Origin: an uncultured Oscillospiraceae bacterium
Lineage (GTDB): Bacteria; Bacillota; Clostridia; Oscillospirales; Ruminococcaceae
Length of the DNA stretch: 24,000 nucleotides
Reading direction: 5' to 3'
Assembly: GCA_964370465.1 (NCBI GenBank)
Contig: CAYJJJ010000004.1
Coordinates: 12,643 to 36,642, forward strand
In this document: piece after piece, positions 9,002 through 17,929 of the stretch
Layout of the letters: every line of letters begins with the position of its first letter
Numbering within the stretch: position 1 is the stretch's first letter
Program-made: the position numbers and the translations under genes
Notes under the pieces: generated by a model
The model's database searches: none
The model's input: the letters and a program-made list of their open reading frames with translations, nothing else
Told to the model about the DNA's origin: nothing

Positions 9002-10678
9002 ATGTTTTCAGCAGTAGACACAATTTGGACGTTACTCGGGGCGGCGCTCGTCTTCTTTATGCAGGCGGGGTTTGCAATGGTAGAGACAGGATTTACAAGG
9101 GCGAAGAATGCCGGTAACATCATCATGAAAAACCTTATGGACTTCTCACTTGGTAGCGTTATGTTCTGGTTTATAGGTTTTGGGCTTATGTTTGGAGGCG
9201 ATGGCGCTTTTATTGGCGGTCTTGATTTTTTCATACAAGGTGATTATGGCTCGTCTATTCCATCGGCGGCATTTATTATATTCCAAACTGTATTCTGTGC
9301 CACAGCGGCAACTATTGTTTCAGGTGCGATGGCTGAAAGAACAAAATTCTCGACCTACTGTATCTACAGTATTATAATAAGTGCGGTTGTTTACCCAATT
9401 TCAGGTCACTGGATATGGGGAGGCGGCTGGCTATCACAGATGGGCTTCCACGATTTTGCAGGATCAACAGCAGTTCATATGGTAGGTGGTGTTGCGGCAC
9501 TTGTAGGAGCTAAGATAATTGGCCCTCGTATTGGAAAATTCAGCAAAAGCGGAAAGGTGCGAGCAATACCTGGTCACAGTTTAACACTTGGTGCTCTTGG
9601 CGTATTTATTCTTTGGTTCTGCTGGTTTGGATTCAACGGTGGTTCAACTGTTTCAATGACAGATGGCGCTATAGAGTCAGCGGCTAACATATTTATGACA
9701 ACAAACATAGCGGCGGCGGCAGCTGCAGCAGCTGTTATGATAATAACATGGATAAGATACAAAAAACCAGACGTATCGATGACACTCAATGGCGCGCTCG
9801 CAGGACTTGTTGGAATAACTGCTGGTTGTGATGTGGTTTCACCTACAGGTGCATTCTTTATAGGTTTAATCTCTGCATTTGTAGTAGTATTTGGAATTGA
9901 GTTTGTTGAGAAGATACTAAAAATTGATGACCCAGTTGGTGCTGTTGGCGTACATGGAATGTGCGGTGCTGTTGGTACAATACTCGTCGGTGTGTTTGCG
10001 CTCGAAGGCGGTCTTGCTTACGGCGGTGGATTTGACTATCTGATAGTTCAGCTTATAGGTGTTGGAGCGGTTATTGCTTGGGTTGCTGTTACCATGACAA
10101 TTGTATTTACAGTTCTTAAAAAGACAATCGGTATAAGAGTAACAAGGGCGGAAGAGCAAGCTGGACTCGATATAGAAGAGCATGGACTTGTAAGCAGTTA
10201 TGCAGACTTTGTGCCTGTAACTCACGGTGCAAACTTTGTTGCAAAACCAGAAGTAGAAGAGGCGCTCGAAGTGGCGGCTGTAGATGTTGCTATACCAGTA
10301 GTTGATAACTCAAAAGCAGGTGCTAAAATGACTAAAGTAGTTATCATAACAAAACGCAACAGGTTTGAACTTCTAAAATCAGCGCTTGACAGCATAGAGA
10401 TAACAGGTATGACTGTAACAGAAGTTCTCGGTTGTGGAATACAAAAAGGTGTTACAGAGCTATACCGTGGTACACCGCTTGAAACAACACTTCTACCAAA
10501 AATCAAAGTTGAGGTTGTTGTCTGCAAAGTGCCAGTACAAACTGTTGTAGATACAGTTAAAAAAGCGTTATACACAGGAAACATCGGCGATGGTAAAATA
10601 TTTATCTATGATGTTGAGAACGTTATAAAAGTTAGAACTGGCGAGCAGGGTTATGATGCTCTTCAGGATGTTGAATAA
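9002..10678 (+). CDS. amtB: Ammonium transporter (Amt family) fused in-frame to a C-terminal PII (GlnK/GlnB) nitrogen-signalling domain
   Basis: One uninterrupted 558-aa ORF. Residues 1 to ~400 are a multi-TM Amt domain (FFMQAGFAMVETG, DFAGSTAVHMVGG, FGFNGGS, DPVGAVGVHGMCG). An acidic linker of about 45 aa follows. The last ~115 aa, MTKVVIITKRNRFELLKSALDSIEITGMTVTEVLGCGIQKGVTELYRGT...GDGKIFIYDVENVIKVRTGEQG, are an unmistakable PII fold sequence with the T-loop Tyr. Confidence 0.9.
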   Translation: MFSAVDTIWTLLGAALVFFMQAGFAMVETGFTRAKNAGNIIMKNLMDFSLGSVMFWFIGFGLMFGGDGAFIGGLDFFIQGDYGSSIPSAAFIIFQTVFCATAATIVSGAMAERTKFSTYCIYSIIISAVVYPISGHWIWGGGWLSQMGFHDFAGSTAVHMVGGVAALVGAKIIGPRIGKFSKSGKVRAIPGHSLTLGALGVFILWFCWFGFNGGSTVSMTDGAIESAANIFMTTNIAAAAAAAAVMIITWIRYKKPDVSMTLNGALAGLVGITAGCDVVSPTGAFFIGLISAFVVVFGIEFVEKILKIDDPVGAVGVHGMCGAVGTILVGVFALEGGLAYGGGFDYLIVQLIGVGAVIAWVAVTMTIVFTVLKKTIGIRVTRAEEQAGLDIEEHGLVSSYADFVPVTHGANFVAKPEVEEALEVAAVDVAIPVVDNSKAGAKMTKVVIITKRNRFELLKSALDSIEITGMTVTEVLGCGIQKGVTELYRGTPLETTLLPKIKVEVVVCKVPVQTVVDTVKKALYTGNIGDGKIFIYDVENVIKVRTGEQGYDALQDVE

Positions 10679-10701
10679 ATAAAATTTAACAGTATACAAT
10701 T

Positions 10702-10753
10702 AAAAAAGACCTCCCATCTGTCGGATTAAATCTAACAGATGGGAGGTCGTTTT
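10702..10753. terminator. Bidirectional intrinsic terminator
   Basis: 14-bp perfect stem GACCTCCCATCTGT (10708-10721) / ACAGATGGGAGGTC (10735-10748). It is flanked by A6 on the left, which reads as a U-run for minus-strand transcripts. GTTTTA lies on the right. It sits after amtB-glnK and after the orphan repeat copy and XRE gene. Confidence 0.8.
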
Positions 10754-10792
10754 AATGTGAGTATAAAATAATTGAGGTTTTAAAATTCAAAC

Positions 10793-10855
10793 CTAAACCA
10801 TTCGCACTTTGCGCTCTTTTAGCTTGTTTGCTCGGTAGTTAGCACTGCCGAGGTG
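10793..10855 (-). repeat. 63-bp direct repeat, copy A: orphan duplicate of the last 20 codons plus stop of the glycyl-radical enzyme gene at 13358-14860
   Basis: It is base-for-base identical to 13358-13420 by manual alignment (CTAAACCATTCGCACTTTGCGCTCTTTTAGCTTGTTTGCTCGGTAGTTAGCACTGCCGAGGTG). On the minus strand it encodes HLGSANYRANKLKERKVRMV* with no upstream ORF. It lies 4 nt downstream of the XRE gene stop. Confidence 0.9.
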
Positions 10856-10859
10856 AAAG

Positions 10860-11096
10860 TTAAAATCCAGCGAAAAATTCATCATAACTACAACCATAGA
10901 TTTTGCGTAATTCTACAACAATGCTTATTGGAATATTTAGCTCACCATATTCATATTTAGCATAAGTGCTTCTGCCAATATCGCATCCAGCACGTTGCAA
11001 TTTAGCACAAAGCTTCTCTTGAGAAAGTTTATTAACAATTCTTAATCGTTTTAAGTTTATACCCATATTTAAATCACGTCTTAACTTTTGTTCCAT
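10860..11096 (-). CDS. XRE-family helix-turn-helix transcriptional regulator (78 aa)
   Basis: The pattern LKRLRIVNKLSQEKLCAKLQRAGCDIGRSTYAKYEYGELNIPISIVVELRKIYGCSYDEFF is typical of HTH_3/Cro-C1 proteins. RBS GGGAGAA lies 4 nt upstream of the ATG. Confidence 0.85.
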   Translation of the reverse strand: MEQKLRRDLNMGINLKRLRIVNKLSQEKLCAKLQRAGCDIGRSTYAKYEYGELNIPISIVVELRKIYGCSYDEFFAGF

Positions 11097-11157
11097 TAAA
11101 TTCTCCCAAAAATAAAATAATTGTAATAATAATTATTTTATGATATTATGAAGTAAG

Positions 11158-11183
11158 TAATTGACCGTTATATTGGTCAATTA
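11158..11183. promoter_or_regulatory. 9-bp perfect inverted repeat, candidate operator in the divergent XRE/membrane-protein intergenic region
   Basis: TAATTGACC (11158-11166), 8-nt spacer GTTATATT, GGTCAATTA (11175-11183). It is centred between the two divergent genes. Each arm contains a TTGACC -35-like hexamer. Confidence 0.5.
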
Positions 11184-11241
11184 GGTTTTGGGCAAAAGGT
11201 TATATAAGTAAAGGGTTTCAAATAATATTGTGGGAGGATTT

Positions 11242-13266
11242 ATGAATTGTAAAAAATGTAACACACTGATTCCATTGCATGGTGCATATTGTCCTAATTG
11301 TAAAGAGCCGGTTACGGATTTTGTGATTTTACAGAACGGTATACAAAATAGCTATGCAGATGAACAGAATTTTGATTATTATCAAAATGATACTTCTCAG
11401 CCAGAAAGTGAAACAGAAATTATTATACAACCACAGCAGGTAACAAATGATAACTCAAATAAATTTTTAGACAAACTCGAGCGAAAGATAAAAAAAATAA
11501 TTGATATTCTCATAAAATTCTTTAAAAGCTTAACTCCTATAAAAATATGCATACTGATAACATTTGCGATTGTAATAATTATAGGTTTTTCTTTCATTTT
11601 TAATAGTATTATAAGTTTTATTGATGAAATGAATGGTATTATAAGCATTGACAGTGAGTATAACGATTACATAGACTTAGAATATTCAGCAGCTTATAGA
11701 GATATAGAAAAAGAGGGATTTACTAATATAGAATTATTAGAATTAAATGACTTAGAAAGCAGTATTGATGACAAGCTAGTAACTGAGATAACTATTGATG
11801 GTGAATCAGAGTTTTACAGTGGCGATAAGTTTAGTTTAGATTCAAAAGTAGTTATAACATATCATACAGTTTTACAACTAACTTCACCACTAGATGCATC
11901 TCAAACAATAGGGAAAAACTTTGAGGAAATAAAAAATGAATTTGAATTAGCTGGTTTTAGCGATGTGCGAACAGTTGGACTTGAAGATTTGAAATCGGAT
12001 GACATAAATCTTTATAATGTTGAAGAGGTGACAATCGACAGTTCGCAAAATTTCAATTCAGAAGAAATGTTTCCAAAAGATTCTGTAATAAAAATTTACT
12101 ACCATTCACCAATGCAAATAGAGATTCCGGTCAGTTCTGAAGATATGGAATTTGAAAACTATGAATTATATTTGGATATGTTTGAGAGGGCAGGGTTTAC
12201 AAATATATCAACCGAAAAAATTGAAGATCTCATAATAGGTTTTCTTGTATCAGACGGAGAAATTGAAAAAGTAACTGTTGATGGTAATGATAATTTTCAG
12301 AAAGGTGAAAGCTATCCTCCTGATGTTGAAATAGTATTTTATTACCATACTTTCCCTGGCGACGATGAAGAAGAGAATACTGATGAAAACACTGAAGAAG
12401 CAGAATTGCTTGAAGAATATTTTCCGCAAGAGATGGCGAAACGAGCAATTATAGTTGCAATGACTAATCACAACGCTATAGATGTTTTCTCGGAAGACGG
12501 AAACACAAGAGACCCATCTAAGTTTCACAGCTATTCAGATAAATCAGATTATTATATAACCATATATGAAGATGGTGTTTGGGAAGCAGTCAATGATTAT
12601 ACTTGGTATGTCGAAGATTTGGTTCTTGAACTTCACGGCTATACATTCTTAAAGGTTTCACTTGAAATCGCTTATGATGAGATTTTTTATTATATTGAGA
12701 ATGGAACTCTCACAATAGCTAATCTTGAAAATATAAATTCGTCAGACCCTAATAAAATTTCAGTTGAAGAGCTGATAAACAATGCAAACAATCCTCAACT
12801 GACGGTTTCTCCGGATTTAATTGTTGAAGACAGAATAGAGGAATTTGATGATATTGAAGATGAATCTATTGATGAAGTTCCCGAAAGCATTCCTGATGAT
12901 TCAACATCTTCCGGAAGTGAATCAGGATTTTCGCACTATGAATGGAACAGCTGGGTTAATTCACAGTTTAGTATTTGGGATGGTTCGCACAATGATTTTG
13001 AGGAGTTAATCAAGGATAATTTAAATGATGAACGCTCATATAGTCACATAGAAACAACTTTTATAGCGATAAGTGATGAAAATGTAAAAAACGATGTTTT
13101 ATCAATTTTACAGGGAGCTGGCGTCAATACTACATTAGAAATATATGATGTATTTATTATGTGTGAATTTTCAGCAAAAAATGCTTTTGATGCTACAATT
13201 AAAAATACAGCACTTGGTGTTGTGAGCTATGAAAACAATACAATTACACTAATAACAGTTTTATAA
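11242..13266 (+). CDS. Zinc-ribbon, single-pass membrane protein with three tandem ~65-aa extracytoplasmic repeats, an acidic linker and two uncharacterised C-terminal domains (674 aa)
   Basis: The ORF track starts at GTG 11230. I prefer the ATG at 11242, preceded by GGGAGGA. N-terminal CKKCN...CPNCKEP is a zinc ribbon. The TM helix is ICILITFAIVIIIGFSFIFNSIISFI. Three repeats lie at 11680-11868, 11911-12108 and 12151-12351. They share the pattern (E/D)xxGFxx(I/V)...(V/I)xx(I/V)T(I/V)DG/S..F.....(F/Y)......V.I.YH. Acidic runs follow (DDEEENTDENTEEAE; EEFDDIEDESIDE). No homolog was recognised for the C-terminal part. Confidence 0.75.
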   Translation: MNCKKCNTLIPLHGAYCPNCKEPVTDFVILQNGIQNSYADEQNFDYYQNDTSQPESETEIIIQPQQVTNDNSNKFLDKLERKIKKIIDILIKFFKSLTPIKICILITFAIVIIIGFSFIFNSIISFIDEMNGIISIDSEYNDYIDLEYSAAYRDIEKEGFTNIELLELNDLESSIDDKLVTEITIDGESEFYSGDKFSLDSKVVITYHTVLQLTSPLDASQTIGKNFEEIKNEFELAGFSDVRTVGLEDLKSDDINLYNVEEVTIDSSQNFNSEEMFPKDSVIKIYYHSPMQIEIPVSSEDMEFENYELYLDMFERAGFTNISTEKIEDLIIGFLVSDGEIEKVTVDGNDNFQKGESYPPDVEIVFYYHTFPGDDEEENTDENTEEAELLEEYFPQEMAKRAIIVAMTNHNAIDVFSEDGNTRDPSKFHSYSDKSDYYITIYEDGVWEAVNDYTWYVEDLVLELHGYTFLKVSLEIAYDEIFYYIENGTLTIANLENINSSDPNKISVEELINNANNPQLTVSPDLIVEDRIEEFDDIEDESIDEVPESIPDDSTSSGSESGFSHYEWNSWVNSQFSIWDGSHNDFEELIKDNLNDERSYSHIETTFIAISDENVKNDVLSILQGAGVNTTLEIYDVFIMCEFSAKNAFDATIKNTALGVVSYENNTITLITVL

Positions 13267-13297
13267 AATAGGCTAATAATATTAGTAACTAATCTGA

Positions 13298-13339
13298 AAA
13301 ACACCCATCGTTTTGAATTTTCAAAACGATGGGTGTTTT
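13298..13339. terminator. Bidirectional intrinsic terminator
   Basis: Near-perfect long hairpin ACACCCATCGTTTTGAA / TTCAAAACGATGGGTGT (13301-13336). A-run on the left and T-run on the right. It lies between the convergent 674-aa gene and the glycyl-radical enzyme gene. Confidence 0.8.
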
Positions 13340-13357
13340 AAACCTACAAATATAATG

Positions 13358-13420
13358 CTAAACCATTCGCACTTTGCGCTCTTTTAGCTTGTTTGCTCGG
13401 TAGTTAGCACTGCCGAGGTG
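13358..13420 (-). repeat. 63-bp direct repeat, copy B: the functional 3' end (codons 481-500 plus stop) of the glycyl-radical enzyme gene
   Basis: Identical to 10793-10855. It starts exactly at the stop codon and ends exactly on a codon boundary (21 codons). Confidence 0.9.
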
Positions 13421-14860
13421 GATGGTGTTTTGAAGCACCGTTTCACCGCTCTCATGCTTTGCCATCTCACTGCGTTTAACAAGGTATCCAGTTATACGAA
13501 CAAGATCGGAGTCCGCTGCATAGAAGCTCATATAGTGAACACCCTCGCTAAATGCACCTTTGACAACGTCAGCAAGCGCCGCTGGGTTTTGTTCTATATT
13601 TGTAGCTATTGGGAATATATCGCCAACGCCCGCTGGGAAATATTTATGATATCTCGCAGAGTGGCGGAGATGATCGATAAAGTTATCTGGCTCATCACCG
13701 ACAGGGATGCGCACACCAGATGTAACTCCGATATCAGAATCAAGCCCTACCTGTGCATGAAGCACAAACTTGTTGTCAGTGAGAGGGGAGTATACTGCAT
13801 CAAAACTATCGACTGTCGCTTTAATCTTATCCATTATACGAACTGCCAAAATATTTGCCTCTTCATCTCTGCCATACTGCAAATCTTTATCTTTGAGCAG
13901 GCCATTAACAGCCTCCGCAAGACCAGTTACACCAAACATTGTAACAAACCTATCTTTATCCATAAGTCCTTCTTTTATCAGAAAATTTGACTCGAAGAAA
14001 CCGCTTTTTTCGACAAAGAATGAAACCCTCTCGTTTAAATAATCTGCCATTAGTTGCAAAACTTCAGGTAGCAGTTCTTCAACAAAATGCTCGACGCTAT
14101 TTGCATCTTCTATAAGTTTTGTGAGGGTTATTCTCGATAGGGTGTATGAGCCACCTGAAATCGGTAGGATATTATAACAGCTTGAAATGCCATACCCACC
14201 GTTATAGTAGTTAATATTTGCGGTGTCGTTGCAGATAGCGGGGTTTGAGCATTTTAATGAGGTTTTAACTGCAAGTGATAAAAAGTCATCAGTTGTCTTC
14301 TCGGGATTGTATTTAAGAGTTAAGTTTGGAACGGCATTCGAAAGCTCGCCGATAACTTTAATTATAAGCTCACCCGCCCTTGAAGGGGTAGCGGAGATAT
14401 TCGCATGGCAAAATGAGTCGGTAATAGTTCTGTCGAGGTAGGTGAAGAATAGTTTTAGTTTTCTCTCGACCTCCTCGTCGCTTATATCCTCGATAAAAGG
14501 CGCTATCATCGTATCTAAATCTCCGAGGTAAACAGGGAAGTTTGTAACAGATGGAACATGCCTATAAAGGGTCATGAGCGAGAAAATAAGTTCATCAAAA
14601 TCAGCTGGGGGAGTGAGTCCTAAAAATGCACTGCCGTTTTCTATGAATTTCTGATAATCTGGCATTGTGTATCTTGGGCAATATGGCGCTGAAAATCCCG
14701 ATAGGTCGTTTATAGCACCTGTTTCAAAAAAGTGCATCGCTCTCTCAGGGACATTTAAGACCTTCACCGAGCATGCTGCCGCATTCGCAAGTCCCATAAC
14801 CTTTTGTTCGTGGGTGAGCGTCTGCGAAGTTAATATGTTATATGCAAAATTGCTGTCCAT
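13358..14860 (-). CDS. yjjI: Putative glycyl-radical enzyme, YjjI-like family (DUF3029-type, ~500 aa), paralog 1
   Basis: 500 aa. The C-terminal glycyl-radical-type motif DLVRITGYLVKR has its Gly codon at 13487-13489. The gene lies immediately downstream of a radical-SAM activase. The ~500 aa size is much shorter than PFL-class enzymes and matches the YjjI family as I remember it. The protein aligns along its whole length with the ORF at 15730-17235. Confidence 0.65.
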   Translation of the reverse strand: MDSNFAYNILTSQTLTHEQKVMGLANAAACSVKVLNVPERAMHFFETGAINDLSGFSAPYCPRYTMPDYQKFIENGSAFLGLTPPADFDELIFSLMTLYRHVPSVTNFPVYLGDLDTMIAPFIEDISDEEVERKLKLFFTYLDRTITDSFCHANISATPSRAGELIIKVIGELSNAVPNLTLKYNPEKTTDDFLSLAVKTSLKCSNPAICNDTANINYYNGGYGISSCYNILPISGGSYTLSRITLTKLIEDANSVEHFVEELLPEVLQLMADYLNERVSFFVEKSGFFESNFLIKEGLMDKDRFVTMFGVTGLAEAVNGLLKDKDLQYGRDEEANILAVRIMDKIKATVDSFDAVYSPLTDNKFVLHAQVGLDSDIGVTSGVRIPVGDEPDNFIDHLRHSARYHKYFPAGVGDIFPIATNIEQNPAALADVVKGAFSEGVHYMSFYAADSDLVRITGYLVKRSEMAKHESGETVLQNTIHLGSANYRANKLKERKVRMV

Positions 14861-14878
14861 CGTATCTTCCTTTCAATA

Positions 14879-15733
14879 TTAAACGGTTAAAATATCTTTA
14901 AATCCTACCGACTGCGCAAGGGCTTTAAGCCTTTGCAACTCATCGTCACTTGTTGCAGGTAAACTACTATATTCGCCACGCACACCAATAGGGCGGAAGG
15001 CGATTAACTTTAGTTTTGTTGAAAGTCCTTTTTCACCGATAAGCTTTGCGGACTGGGTTATAATCCTATCTGCATCAACTTTTCCCGGTATTACAACTAT
15101 TCGAAGTTCGGTGAGTTTTCCCTCATCTGCGAAAAATTTCAGGTTTTTCCGAACTATATCATCGTTTCTATCAAGTGTTACATCATAATATACATCGCTA
15201 TCCCAAGACTTTACATCGAGCATAACGCCGTCGGTAACTGCCATAAGCTCATCTTCTTCTGTGAGGTCGATAGTGCCATTAGTGTCAATAAGGCAAGTTA
15301 GATTTTTTTGGCGCACGAGGCGGAAAAGCTCTGTTAGATATCCGATATTCAGGCAACATTCACCGCCCGAAACTGATATGCCTCGAATAAATGCACCGCT
15401 ATCCTCAATGATTTTAAGCGTGTCTGCCGGTGTCTGTCGCTCGACTTTAGGGGATGCGAAGTGCGGACATACTCGAATACATTCATCGCACTTCACGCAT
15501 TTATTCTTATCCCACAAAACTGCATCACCGCTTTGGGTGAGCGCCTTTGTAGGACATAATAAAACGCACTCTCCACACCCGATACAAAAGTTTTGAGTTT
15601 CGGGGTTGTGGCAGTATTTGCATTTTATATTGCAGTTTTGAAGAAATATCGATGTGCGAGCACCGGGACCATCGACTGTGCTTATAGGGATAATGTTATT
15701 TACATATGCAAAAGAGCTTTGCCCGTTTATCAT
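14879..15733 (-). CDS. yjjW: Glycyl-radical enzyme activating protein (radical SAM, YjjW-like)
   Basis: 284 aa. The radical-SAM cluster motif is CNIKCKYCHNPET (CX3CX2C), preceded by VDGPGARTSIFLQNC. Two ferredoxin-like motifs follow: CIGCGECVLLCP and CVKCDECIRVCP. The ATG overlaps the upstream gene stop (ATGA at 15730-15733). Confidence 0.85.
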   Translation of the reverse strand: MINGQSSFAYVNNIIPISTVDGPGARTSIFLQNCNIKCKYCHNPETQNFCIGCGECVLLCPTKALTQSGDAVLWDKNKCVKCDECIRVCPHFASPKVERQTPADTLKIIEDSGAFIRGISVSGGECCLNIGYLTELFRLVRQKNLTCLIDTNGTIDLTEEDELMAVTDGVMLDVKSWDSDVYYDVTLDRNDDIVRKNLKFFADEGKLTELRIVVIPGKVDADRIITQSAKLIGEKGLSTKLKLIAFRPIGVRGEYSSLPATSDDELQRLKALAQSVGFKDILTV

Positions 15734-17235
15734 AGCATTCGCACCTTGCGCTCGCCAAGGCTTGCAACTTCATAAAACTCAGCGCCGCCACCTGTTATAT
15801 CGTTAATAACAGCTTCGCCGTTTTTGAATTTCTCCATCTCACTGCGCTTTACAAGGTAGCCCGATATACGGACAACATCGGTATCAGCTGAGTAGAAACT
15901 CATATAGTGAACTCCAGCGGAGAATGCGCCTTTTACAACGTCTACAAGGGATTCTGGGTTATTCACAACGTTTGGAGCTATCGGGAAGATATCGCCAACA
16001 CCAGTTGGGAAGTATTTGTGGAATCTGCCTGAATGGCGAAGATGTGCCGAGAAATCCTCTGGCTCATCGCCTATAGGGATACGAACACCAGCTGAAACAT
16101 TTGTATCAACGCGGCCTAGTCCCACCTGCGCGTGCAGTAGGAATTTTCCGCCTGTAAGAGGAGAGTAGACAGCGTCAAAGCTATTTACAACTTCTTCCAT
16201 CTTATCCATTATGCGAACAGCTAAATCGTCCGCCTCTTTATCAATACCATATTTAAGCCCTTTGTCTTGTAACAGAATATTAACGCACTCAGCAAGCCCT
16301 GTTACACCAAACATAGCAAGAAATCTATCCTTATCCATAAGTCCTTCTTTTATAAGGAAGCTCGACTCAAAAAATCCGCTCTTCTCTACTAAAAAGGTTA
16401 TTCTTTGGTTCATATAGTCGGCAATTATCTCAAGAACTTCAGGCATAAGCTCATTGATGAAATGCTCGACAGAAGTGGCTTCTAATGCAAGTTTTGCAGG
16501 AGTTATTCTTGTGAGGGTATAAGCGCCGCCGCAGTTTGGCAGAATGTTGTAACAACTTGCAACACCGTAGTCGCCGTCGTAGTAGTTTGAATTTGCAACG
16601 TCGTTGCAGATTGCAGGGTTTGAGCTCTTAAGCGACGCTCTAATAGCTTCTGCAAGGAAACTGTCAGGTGTTTTTTCGCTGTTGTATTTTATAGTCCAGT
16701 TTGGAACTGTGCTCTGCATATCGCCGGCAACTTTAAGTAGAAGTCTGCCAGCTCTTGTCTCAACTGGCTCAATTGTTGCGTGACAGAATGAGTCGTTTAT
16801 TGTTTTATCGAGGTAGCTTAAAAACAACTTTAATTTTTTCATAACTTCCTCATCACTCATATCGGTGATAAATGGGTCAATGAGTTTATCAAGTTCACCT
16901 AAAAAAACAGGGAAGTTTGTAATTGAAGGGATATGGCGATACAAAATCATAAGAGAAAAGATAAGCTCGTCAAGGTCAGCTGGTGGTTTTAATCCTAAGA
17001 ACTCACTGCCATTTTTGACAAACTTATGGTAATCAGGCATAGTGTATCTTGGTCGATAGGGAGCAGCGCCCTCCCACAAATCATTAATAGCGCCTGTGTC
17101 GAAAAAGTGCTGAGCTCTCTCTGAGATATTTAAAACAGAGATTGAGTTTTCGGCAATTTTTGCAAGCCCCATAACCTTTTGTTCGTGAGTAAGAGATTTA
17201 CTCGTTACTTTTTCATAAGCTAAATTTGTGTCCAT
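15730..17235 (-). CDS. yjjI: Putative glycyl-radical enzyme, YjjI-like family, paralog 2
   Basis: The ORF track extends to a TTG at 17256. I prefer the ATG at 17235 (MDTNLAYEKVTSKSLTHEQKVMGLA), which aligns with the paralog 1 N-terminus (MDSNFAYNILTSQTLTHEQKVMGLA) and has AAAGGAA upstream. The C-terminal motif is DVVRISGYLVKR. Blocks shared with paralog 1 are NPAICND, SCYNILP and DIFPIA. Confidence 0.65.
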   Translation of the reverse strand: MDTNLAYEKVTSKSLTHEQKVMGLAKIAENSISVLNISERAQHFFDTGAINDLWEGAAPYRPRYTMPDYHKFVKNGSEFLGLKPPADLDELIFSLMILYRHIPSITNFPVFLGELDKLIDPFITDMSDEEVMKKLKLFLSYLDKTINDSFCHATIEPVETRAGRLLLKVAGDMQSTVPNWTIKYNSEKTPDSFLAEAIRASLKSSNPAICNDVANSNYYDGDYGVASCYNILPNCGGAYTLTRITPAKLALEATSVEHFINELMPEVLEIIADYMNQRITFLVEKSGFFESSFLIKEGLMDKDRFLAMFGVTGLAECVNILLQDKGLKYGIDKEADDLAVRIMDKMEEVVNSFDAVYSPLTGGKFLLHAQVGLGRVDTNVSAGVRIPIGDEPEDFSAHLRHSGRFHKYFPTGVGDIFPIAPNVVNNPESLVDVVKGAFSAGVHYMSFYSADTDVVRISGYLVKRSEMEKFKNGEAVINDITGGGAEFYEVASLGERKVRML

Positions 17236-17236
17236 A

Positions 17237-17929
17237 CTAGTTTCCTTTCTTTTCAATAAGCCTTATAAGTTTATTATATTCATCTTCACTGAGATGTATT
17301 TTACCACGTTTTAGTCGAATTGTCTTTTCATCACTCAACTTTTTTATTGCTCTGTTTGTGCTTCGGGTTGAAATTCCAAGTTTTTCAGCTATTTCGTTTC
17401 GATTTTGGTTGACATAAACATCTGCAGTTTCTTCATCTTCATAGTAGGAGATGAGAAATCGAATGAGTCGCTCTGTTGCCGATAAGAATATTGTCTGTTG
17501 AGTTACAGCTCCCTGCCAAAGCAAGACATTTAGAATTCGCCTTGTCCGATGAAGCATTATCTCGGTGTCACTGGTTAACCAGCTCATATAATCCTCGAGA
17601 TTTATCCGAAGGAAGTCGCAGTCGCTCTTTGCAATAACATCGACGATAATTTTATCAGTGCCTATTAAAAGCTCATACTCACAGAACAGCTCAGGGTCTG
17701 TAAAGTCGTGTGATGCAAAACTTCCAAATCCCTCTTGATTTGTAATAGTTGCGACTCTGCCAGAAAGCATAAACCATATATACCGAACATCATCGTCAAA
17801 GCGGAGAATATAGTCGCCTTTTTTAAATTGAACAAGTTTGATGCTCACATCAGAGAGGAAATCCCCTAAAACACTTTTGGCTGCTTTTGTTAAATTGTTG
17901 TTGCTGTTTAGAAATTCACAATACTTCAT
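17237..17929 (-). CDS. Crp/Fnr-family transcriptional regulator
   Basis: 230 aa. The N-terminal cNMP-binding-like barrel contains FKKGDYILRFDDDVRYIWFMLSGRV. The C-terminal HTH is RNEIAEKLGISTRSTNRAIKKLSDEKTI. No FNR-type N-terminal Cys cluster is present. The stop lies 1 nt before the ATG of the downstream glycyl-radical enzyme gene. Confidence 0.8.
   Translation of the reverse strand: MKYCEFLNSNNNLTKAAKSVLGDFLSDVSIKLVQFKKGDYILRFDDDVRYIWFMLSGRVATITNQEGFGSFASHDFTDPELFCEYELLIGTDKIIVDVIAKSDCDFLRINLEDYMSWLTSDTEIMLHRTRRILNVLLWQGAVTQQTIFLSATERLIRFLISYYEDEETADVYVNQNRNEIAEKLGISTRSTNRAIKKLSDEKTIRLKRGKIHLSEDEYNKLIRLIEKKGN

Follow-up and report, generated by a model that had tools for sequence, protein, structure and literature searches.

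A compositionally foreign two-gene insert between perfect 63-bp direct repeats at the 3' end of a yjjI gene in an uncultured Oscillospiraceae bacterium

Introduction

Genomic elements that are flanked by attachment (att) sites and carry no recombinase have been described in several forms. The cis-mobilizable elements (CIMEs), among them those of the streptococcal ICESt1/ICESt3-type islands, are recombinase-less, att-flanked, and defined as decayed elements; they lie between attL and attR direct repeats at the 3' end of a protein gene, leave that gene intact, have no genes for integration or transfer, and are expected to move only with a recombinase from another element (PMC5704250). The pseudo-staphylococcal cassette chromosome (psi-SCC) elements are likewise recombinase-less and att-flanked, and are found as cassettes between direct repeats at the end of the housekeeping gene rlmH, which remains undisrupted (PMC10581047). 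ICEBs1, a tyrosine-recombinase element of the Firmicutes, is bordered by 60-bp direct repeats with a 17-bp core made of 5-bp inverted repeats around a 7-bp spacer (PMC3715440). Here, we describe a 2,502-bp insert (positions 10856 to 13357) in a 24,000-nucleotide stretch of DNA from an uncultured Oscillospiraceae bacterium (contig CAYJJJ010000004.1 of assembly GCA_964370465.1), hereafter called the window. The insert, or islet, carries two genes and lies between two perfect 63-bp direct repeats at the 3' end of yjjI, a gene for a YjjI-family glycyl-radical enzyme.

The islet resembles each of these systems in part. With CIMEs it shares the direct repeats at the 3' end of a protein gene, the intact target, and the lack of integration and transfer genes, and it too would be expected to move only with the recombinase of another element. 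However, CIMEs are recognized by att sites in common with a known integrative and conjugative element (ICE), whereas the islet has no known cognate element or att site; moreover, CIMEs are thought to arise by decay, whereas the islet is only 2.5 kb long and free of decay debris. At fda, the repeats of the ICESt elements measure about 27 bp, compared with 63 bp in the islet. The psi-SCC elements share with it the undisrupted gene end, the direct repeats, and the absence of a recombinase, but their repeats are imperfect, measure 18 to 21 bp, and are read by the Ccr large serine recombinases, their target is rlmH, and they are tens of kilobases long. ICEBs1 is alike in its junction repeats of about 60 bp, its short inverted-repeat core, and its gene 3'-end target (PMC3715440), but it has its own Int and Xis, spans 20 kb, and targets a tRNA gene. 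A Campbell-type single crossover of a circle gives exactly the topology of the islet, with the duplicated segment as perfect direct repeats around the insert; such homologous integration nevertheless leaves unexplained why the identity has its edge at a stop codon and how the circle acquired the 63-mer, and a length of 63 bp is close to the minimum at which RecA recombines efficiently. Overall, the locus is best placed in a kind already known, that of recombinase-less islets integrated at gene ends. What appears to be new is the yjjI target site, which had not been noted before, together with the unusual length and perfection of the repeat and the very small size.

Results and Discussion

A foreign insert between two copies of the yjjI 3' end

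Positions 10793 to 10855 (copy A) and 13358 to 13420 (copy B) form direct repeats that are identical at 63 of 63 positions, as a sequence-only reading of this DNA had claimed. When the window was searched for the 63-mer with up to 3 mismatches, these two copies were the only ones found, with 0.00 expected from 100 shuffles. Copy B, on the minus strand, is the functional 3' end of yjjI (13358 to 14860, minus strand) and comprises codons 481 to 500 plus the stop codon, an earlier assignment that the map of open reading frames (ORFs) bears out. The 500-residue product is an intact, full-length YjjI: it spans positions 1 to 485 of 485 of the Pfam family PF11230 (YjjI-like; E = 2.6e-194) and scores 614 bits with TIGR04040, for which the cut-off is 498. 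In an alignment of 25 family members, the residues encoded within the repeat fit the YjjI consensus, including the invariant G483, Y487, L492, R495, K496, and R498. yjjI is undisrupted by the insert. Copy A, also on the minus strand, consists of the same codons 481 to 500 and stop codon, without the gene body, and forms an orphan, att-like junction at the other end of the insert.

On the stop-codon side of the repeat, ungapped similarity extends for another 10 nt at 6 of 10 positions, giving a 73-nt family at 95% identity. At the opposite side, the similarity breaks off abruptly at 10855|10856 and 13420|13421, and no microhomology was observed between these two junctions. The edge of the identity block coincides exactly with the yjjI stop codon, a place where an arbitrary breakpoint would land, by our estimate, in about 1 of 60 cases. 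Elements that integrate at gene 3' ends bring a replacement end, so that in their case the identity block is expected to reach the gene end. A crossover core might then be expected near the gene-internal end, and it is there that an imperfect inverted repeat of 9 bp lies in the 63-mer: CTCGGTAGT-TAGC-ACTGCCGAG, complementary at 8 of 9 positions. This is a weak indication: the fold has a z of -2.4, 4 of 200 shuffles fold equally well, and we estimate that chance would supply such an inverted repeat about 1 time in 6. Other short repeats near the junctions (e.g., GGTGTTTTAAA and GGTGTTTTGAA) are within chance expectation.

The insert is compositionally foreign. Its G+C content is 30.8%, compared with 40.0% for the rest of the window (z = -5.7), and 327 other 2.5-kb windows have a minimum of 36.1%. 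The tetranucleotide L1 distance is 0.40 for the insert versus 0.18 ± 0.02 elsewhere, and exceeds the maximum found elsewhere, 0.25, by a factor of 1.6. The G+C content at third codon positions (GC3) is 0.19 and 0.23 in the two insert genes and ranges from 0.24 to 0.41 in the host genes. The low G+C that had earlier been counted by hand on single lines is borne out by these computed values, and both the G+C and the k-mer measures set the insert clearly apart from its flanks. The 63-mer itself has a host-like G+C content of 49%. Perfect repeats and a composition that has not drifted toward that of the host indicate a recent event, which lends support to the same suggestion in the earlier reading.

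Proposed integration of a circular unit at the end of yjjI

When the insert is closed into a circle with one copy of the repeat, a coherent unit of 2,565 bp results, in which two divergent genes, encoding a helix-turn-helix (HTH) regulator and a 674-residue cargo protein, converge on a single bidirectional terminator. In this modelled circle, the 63-mer lies between the stop codon of the HTH gene and the terminator. We hold it to be somewhat probable, with slightly better than an even chance, that positions 10856 to 13357 are a recently acquired, two-gene islet, att-flanked but devoid of a recombinase gene, that came in through a crossover inside the 63-bp sequence. The 2,565-bp circle, carrying its one 63-bp copy, would have recombined with the identical last 20 codons and stop codon of yjjI and would thereby have been inserted, in Campbell fashion, at the 3' end of the gene, leaving two perfect direct repeats as attL/attR-like junctions. 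Since the islet has no recombinase, the crossover would have depended on one of two routes. An integrase might have come in trans from some other element, as with CIMEs and psi-SCC elements, or the 63 bp might have served for RecA-type recombination; precise excision of the islet could be achieved by both. Insertion would, in addition, have swapped the terminators, such that yjjI would now use that of the islet, and transcription of the HTH gene would read through the orphan copy into the old terminator of yjjI and amtB-glnK.

Both terminators are evident in the sequence. The first, at positions 10708 to 10748, is a bidirectional intrinsic terminator with a 14-bp stem (DNA fold, -19.7 kcal/mol; z = -8.6). 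Six T residues in a row follow the stem on the minus strand, and G plus 4 T on the plus strand. The stop-codon end of copy A (10793) lies 39 nt from this hairpin. Thus, the earlier description of copy A as an orphan close to a strong terminator holds, with the distance corrected from about 45 nt and with a terminator that works in both directions in place of one seen as favoring the minus strand. It is probably the original terminator common to amtB-glnK (plus strand) and yjjI (minus strand), and an orphan copy that adjoins such a native-looking terminator is consistent with the earlier proposal that the ancestral yjjI ended there, convergent with amtB-glnK. The second, at positions 13298 to 13339, is the islet's own bidirectional terminator, a perfect 20-bp palindrome (-21.2 kcal/mol; z = -8.7) located 18 nt from copy B. 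By its position, it would end the gene of the 674-residue protein (plus strand) and now also yjjI (minus strand).

The terminators also bear on an account in which nothing was mobile and the repeat was duplicated in place, which we regard as unlikely. Here, a conspecific donor would have had the HTH gene, the gene of the 674-residue protein, and a second terminator adjoining yjjI. A linear fragment of its DNA would have been anchored by yjjI homology at one end and joined illegitimately at the other, 63 bp upstream of the recipient's stop codon, keeping the recipient's last 63 bp as the orphan. Such a duplication would account, without any integrase, for a repeat that is perfect and host-like and for identity that ends about where coding conservation ends, and it agrees with the failure of the searches described below to find a recombinase, another copy of the 63-mer, or hotspot behavior. 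It would fit, too, with a weak alignment of the terminator flanks (10690 to 10792 versus 13270 to 13357; TTAAAAC..CCCATC and GATGGG..TTTTAA), as expected of allelic yjjI downstream regions, given a local score of 40 versus 22.6 ± 4.3 that was reached by 3 of 500 shuffles. However, this score is inflated by the palindromic nature of both sequences, and the likeness could be residual homology or merely a common palindromic shape. Duplication in place further demands a breakpoint that falls 4 nt beyond the natural stop codon of an intact HTH gene, and an unusual event that duplicates instead of deleting, at junctions devoid of the microhomology sought there; the circularized islet is also suspiciously coherent for such an origin. 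That coherence, together with the stop-codon edge of the identity block, favors integration into the gene end.

Gene content of the insert

The insert is 90% coding, both of its genes are intact, and no gene debris was observed. Its outermost features reach almost to the repeats, with the HTH stop codon at 4 nt from one copy and the terminator hairpin at 18 nt from the other. The first gene (10860 to 11096, minus strand) encodes a full-length, 78-residue XRE-family HTH regulator (Pfam HTH_3, E = 4.6e-8; phrog_3 repressor, E = 1.3e-9). It is this gene that ends 4 nt from copy A, and the C-terminal end of its product matches the place where its relatives end. The 145-bp region between the two genes harbors a divergent promoter region (11112 to 11183) with two perfect palindromes, at 11112 to 11141 and 11158 to 11183, whose arms of 11 nt and 9 nt are 100% complementary and whose 8-nt spacers are identical. 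From this arrangement, the HTH protein probably uses the palindromes as operators. When 17 members of the HTH family were aligned, 44 of 78 columns were invariant, an odd level of conservation for a small XRE regulator.

The second gene (11242 to 13266, plus strand) encodes the 674-residue cargo protein, which is not a recombinase. It is a divergent zinc-ribbon membrane protein, with an N-terminal CxxC...CxxC zinc ribbon, a hydrophobic helix, a domain repeated three times, a middle domain, and a C-terminal domain. The repeat domain corresponds to phrog_29396 (three stretches, E = 1.4e-34) and matches hypothetical proteins on Lactococcus plasmids. The C-terminal domain, of about 100 residues, corresponds to phrog_3403 (E = 6e-10) and has matches in small ORFs that lie close to the right end of P2-like phages (Peduovirus Orf97, VHML ORF47). 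These domains recur widely in rearranged combinations (2,598 representative clusters at E <= 1e-3), and no relatives of the protein were found in viral contigs. No integrase was observed at the loci of distant homologues (L004 to L008). A search for a related solved structure found none, and the AlphaFold model was unusable, with a predicted local distance difference test score (pLDDT) of 41. The recurrence of the cargo domains on phages and plasmids may be counted for the islet reading.

Searches with Pfam, NCBIfam, PHROGs, and PADLOC revealed no recombinase, transposase, relaxase, transfer domain, or defense protein in the insert, and a repeat search found no terminal inverted repeats, in line with what had been read from the sequence before. 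These results also set aside several classes of mobile DNA. A transposon or insertion sequence is rejected, as there is neither a transposase nor terminal inverted repeats and the 63-bp duplication is far above the usual 2 to 15 bp. An integron cassette is rejected, as the repeat is coding sequence with small hairpins only, without an attC hairpin, and the window holds no integrase. A template/variable pair of a diversity-generating retroelement is rejected, the repeats being identical and no reverse transcriptase being found among the window ORFs. A dif/Xer-dependent element was discarded as well, the repeat being, in our judgment, unlike a dif site.

The gene content is also where a decayed origin has to be considered, in which the insert would be all that is left of some larger prophage or ICE with its own integrase that integrated site-specifically and then, through deletions, kept just two genes, as in a CIME in the strict sense. 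We consider this quite unlikely. The att-like repeats at a gene 3' end, the repressor-like HTH protein (phrog_3), and a moron-like cargo whose C-terminal domain is found near the genome ends of P2-like phages would all suit such a remnant, as would the definition of CIMEs as decayed elements (PMC5704250). However, a coding density of 90%, the absence of pseudogene debris, and features that stop 4 nt and 18 nt short of the repeats would call for at least two very clean deletions. In addition, a comparison with 50,697 phage records gave no match to the insert DNA, viral contigs hardly contain the HTH family, and the perfect repeats and un-ameliorated composition denote a young insertion with little time for decay. 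The structural part of the earlier insertion reading stands on the points tested (a foreign insert, an intact yjjI, and an orphan 3' end by a terminator), whereas its version as a decayed element is weakened by the coding density and the intact genes.

As for the features by which CIMEs are known, direct-repeat borders are present in the islet (63/63), with an att function that may be ascribed to them, and integration and transfer genes are absent; decay remnants are lacking. In the sequences covered, an att site matching a related integrase element was not found: no integrase is encoded in the 24-kb window, and the pieces of the 63-mer searched for are absent from the viral and metagenome contigs. 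Membership in the CIME family cannot be claimed, as no cognate att/integrase system is known and there are no signs of decay. The comparison with elements that integrate at gene 3' ends gave a similarly mixed result: the repeat starts at the stop codon and yjjI is full length, and what adjoins the repeats is the HTH stop codon (4 nt) and the terminator (18 nt), not an integrase.

A bolder form of the integration reading, which we think improbable and put forward as speculation, is that the islet is no debris but a purpose-built minimal hitchhiker, a cassette-like unit of 2.6 kb. Its sole mobility determinant would be the 63-bp att site, set between the convergent ends of its genes and the one bidirectional terminator, and insertion and excision at the yjjI end would be the work of a recombinase from another part of the genome. 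If true, uncultured Clostridia would have in such a hitchhiker, for tyrosine or serine recombinases, the equivalent of an integron cassette or of what miniature inverted-repeat transposable elements are for transposases. More generally, if the islet is mobile, it would be an unusually small and clean recombinase-less integrative element, and the yjjI 3' end would be an attachment site not previously noted. Elements of such a kind show how accessory genes may ride on recombinases encoded by other elements. The islet leaves the knowledge of glycyl-radical enzymes and of integration mechanisms unchanged.

Searches for an empty site, further copies, and a cognate integrase

The earlier reading had suggested looking for an empty site in related genomes and for other copies of the 63-mer in this genome. 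Empty sites and further copies were sought in the available collections, and neither search gave a hit. Among about 15 billion sequences, no protein was within 90% identity of this YjjI; the window proteins are singletons, and exact look-ups of the 500-residue YjjI, the 674-residue protein, and the HTH protein returned no record. The nearest YjjI is 75% identical and lies on a 3.3-kb contig. A genome-collection scan with the 500-residue YjjI revealed no empty site and only relatives at 63 to 68% identity, without synteny. A sister species (L099; GCA_964369635.1, contig CAYJGN010000049.1) has an identical S18 protein and 82 to 88% nucleotide identity, with the gene order prfB, Prok-RING gene, nucleotidyltransferase gene, rpsF, ssb, and rpsR, but its contig stops 318 bp past rpsR, short of the yjjI site. 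That neither an empty site, nor a further copy of the 63-mer, nor a cognate integrase was recovered is due to the lack of a close relative of this genome in the databases.

The scopes of these searches were as follows. Neither half of the 63-mer occurs in 2.9 million viral contigs, nor does a 28-nt piece of it in the metagenome contigs. No integrase is encoded in the 24-kb window. No relatives of YjjI were found in the viral contigs. Near 81 other yjjI genes, in 80 metagenome loci with flanks of up to 10 kb, no orphan 3' end was observed (0 of 81), and yjjI is therefore no recognized hotspot. The HTH family is very large in Clostridia, with 3,862 matches, of which the best 120 are all full length and 73 to 81% identical. 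At the other HTH-family loci that were inspected (L009 to L018 and L100), the gene is chromosomal and always divergent from variable, mostly uncharacterized genes; no integrase was found nearby and YjjI was encoded at none of them. Long flanking repeats were absent at the two HTH loci tested, and only 1 of the 2.9 million viral contigs carries the family.

Taken together, these results weigh against an integrated islet: an empty site, a third 63-mer copy, and a cognate integrase are missing from the sequences covered, yjjI genes do not occur in viral contigs and show no orphan 3' ends within the available flanks, and the HTH family is mostly chromosomal, without integrases or, at the two loci tested, long repeats, and nearly absent from viral contigs. 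In addition, a perfect 63-mer with a host-like G+C content of 49% within a 31% element implies that either the element is species specific or the duplication was made in place. Since none of the searches yielded proof of mobility, we infer mobility from the anatomy of the locus alone.

The singleton status of the sequence also bears on whether the arrangement might be a product of assembly, in which an empty yjjI site occurred alongside a free circle of 2,565 bp, or several strains were mixed, and the resulting loop was threaded into the chromosome path. The source is apparently a 49.5-kb contig that is a singleton in the collection, and a 63-bp exact repeat exceeds the largest k-mer of some metagenome assemblers, which then resolve the path by read pairs only. 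However, both junctions must exist in the reads, so that a real element with the 63-mer linked to both ends of the insert would be present either way, and the sequence shows no sign of a chimera; we consider an assembly product very improbable. The 63-bp repeats do make the locus prone to precise deletion and are also a point at which metagenome assemblers may take a wrong path.

Genomic surroundings

The left flank of the islet is a nitrogen-assimilation cluster with genes for a type I glutamine synthetase, an ANTAR-domain response regulator, asnA, a type III glutamine synthetase, and amtB-glnK. The right flank comprises yjjI, a gene for the YjjW activase, a second yjjI paralogue, a gene for a Crp/Fnr regulator, rpsR-ssb-rpsF, and prfB. 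A tRNA scan detected no tRNA gene in the 24-kb window, and an Rfam scan gave chance hairpin matches only.

Two features of these flanks are of interest in their own right. At positions 9002 to 10678 (plus strand), a single 558-residue ORF combines an ammonium transporter (residues 9 to 396) with a PII/GlnK domain (residues 443 to 548). At positions 13358 to 17929 (minus strand), two YjjI paralogues, 67% identical to each other, are encoded around one YjjW activase gene, downstream of the Crp/Fnr gene. This yjjI-yjjW-yjjI layout recurs in 1 of the 80 metagenome loci (L039, 7869 to 11928), and the nearest YjjI relative, the 75% identical one (L003), occupies the crp-adjacent position.

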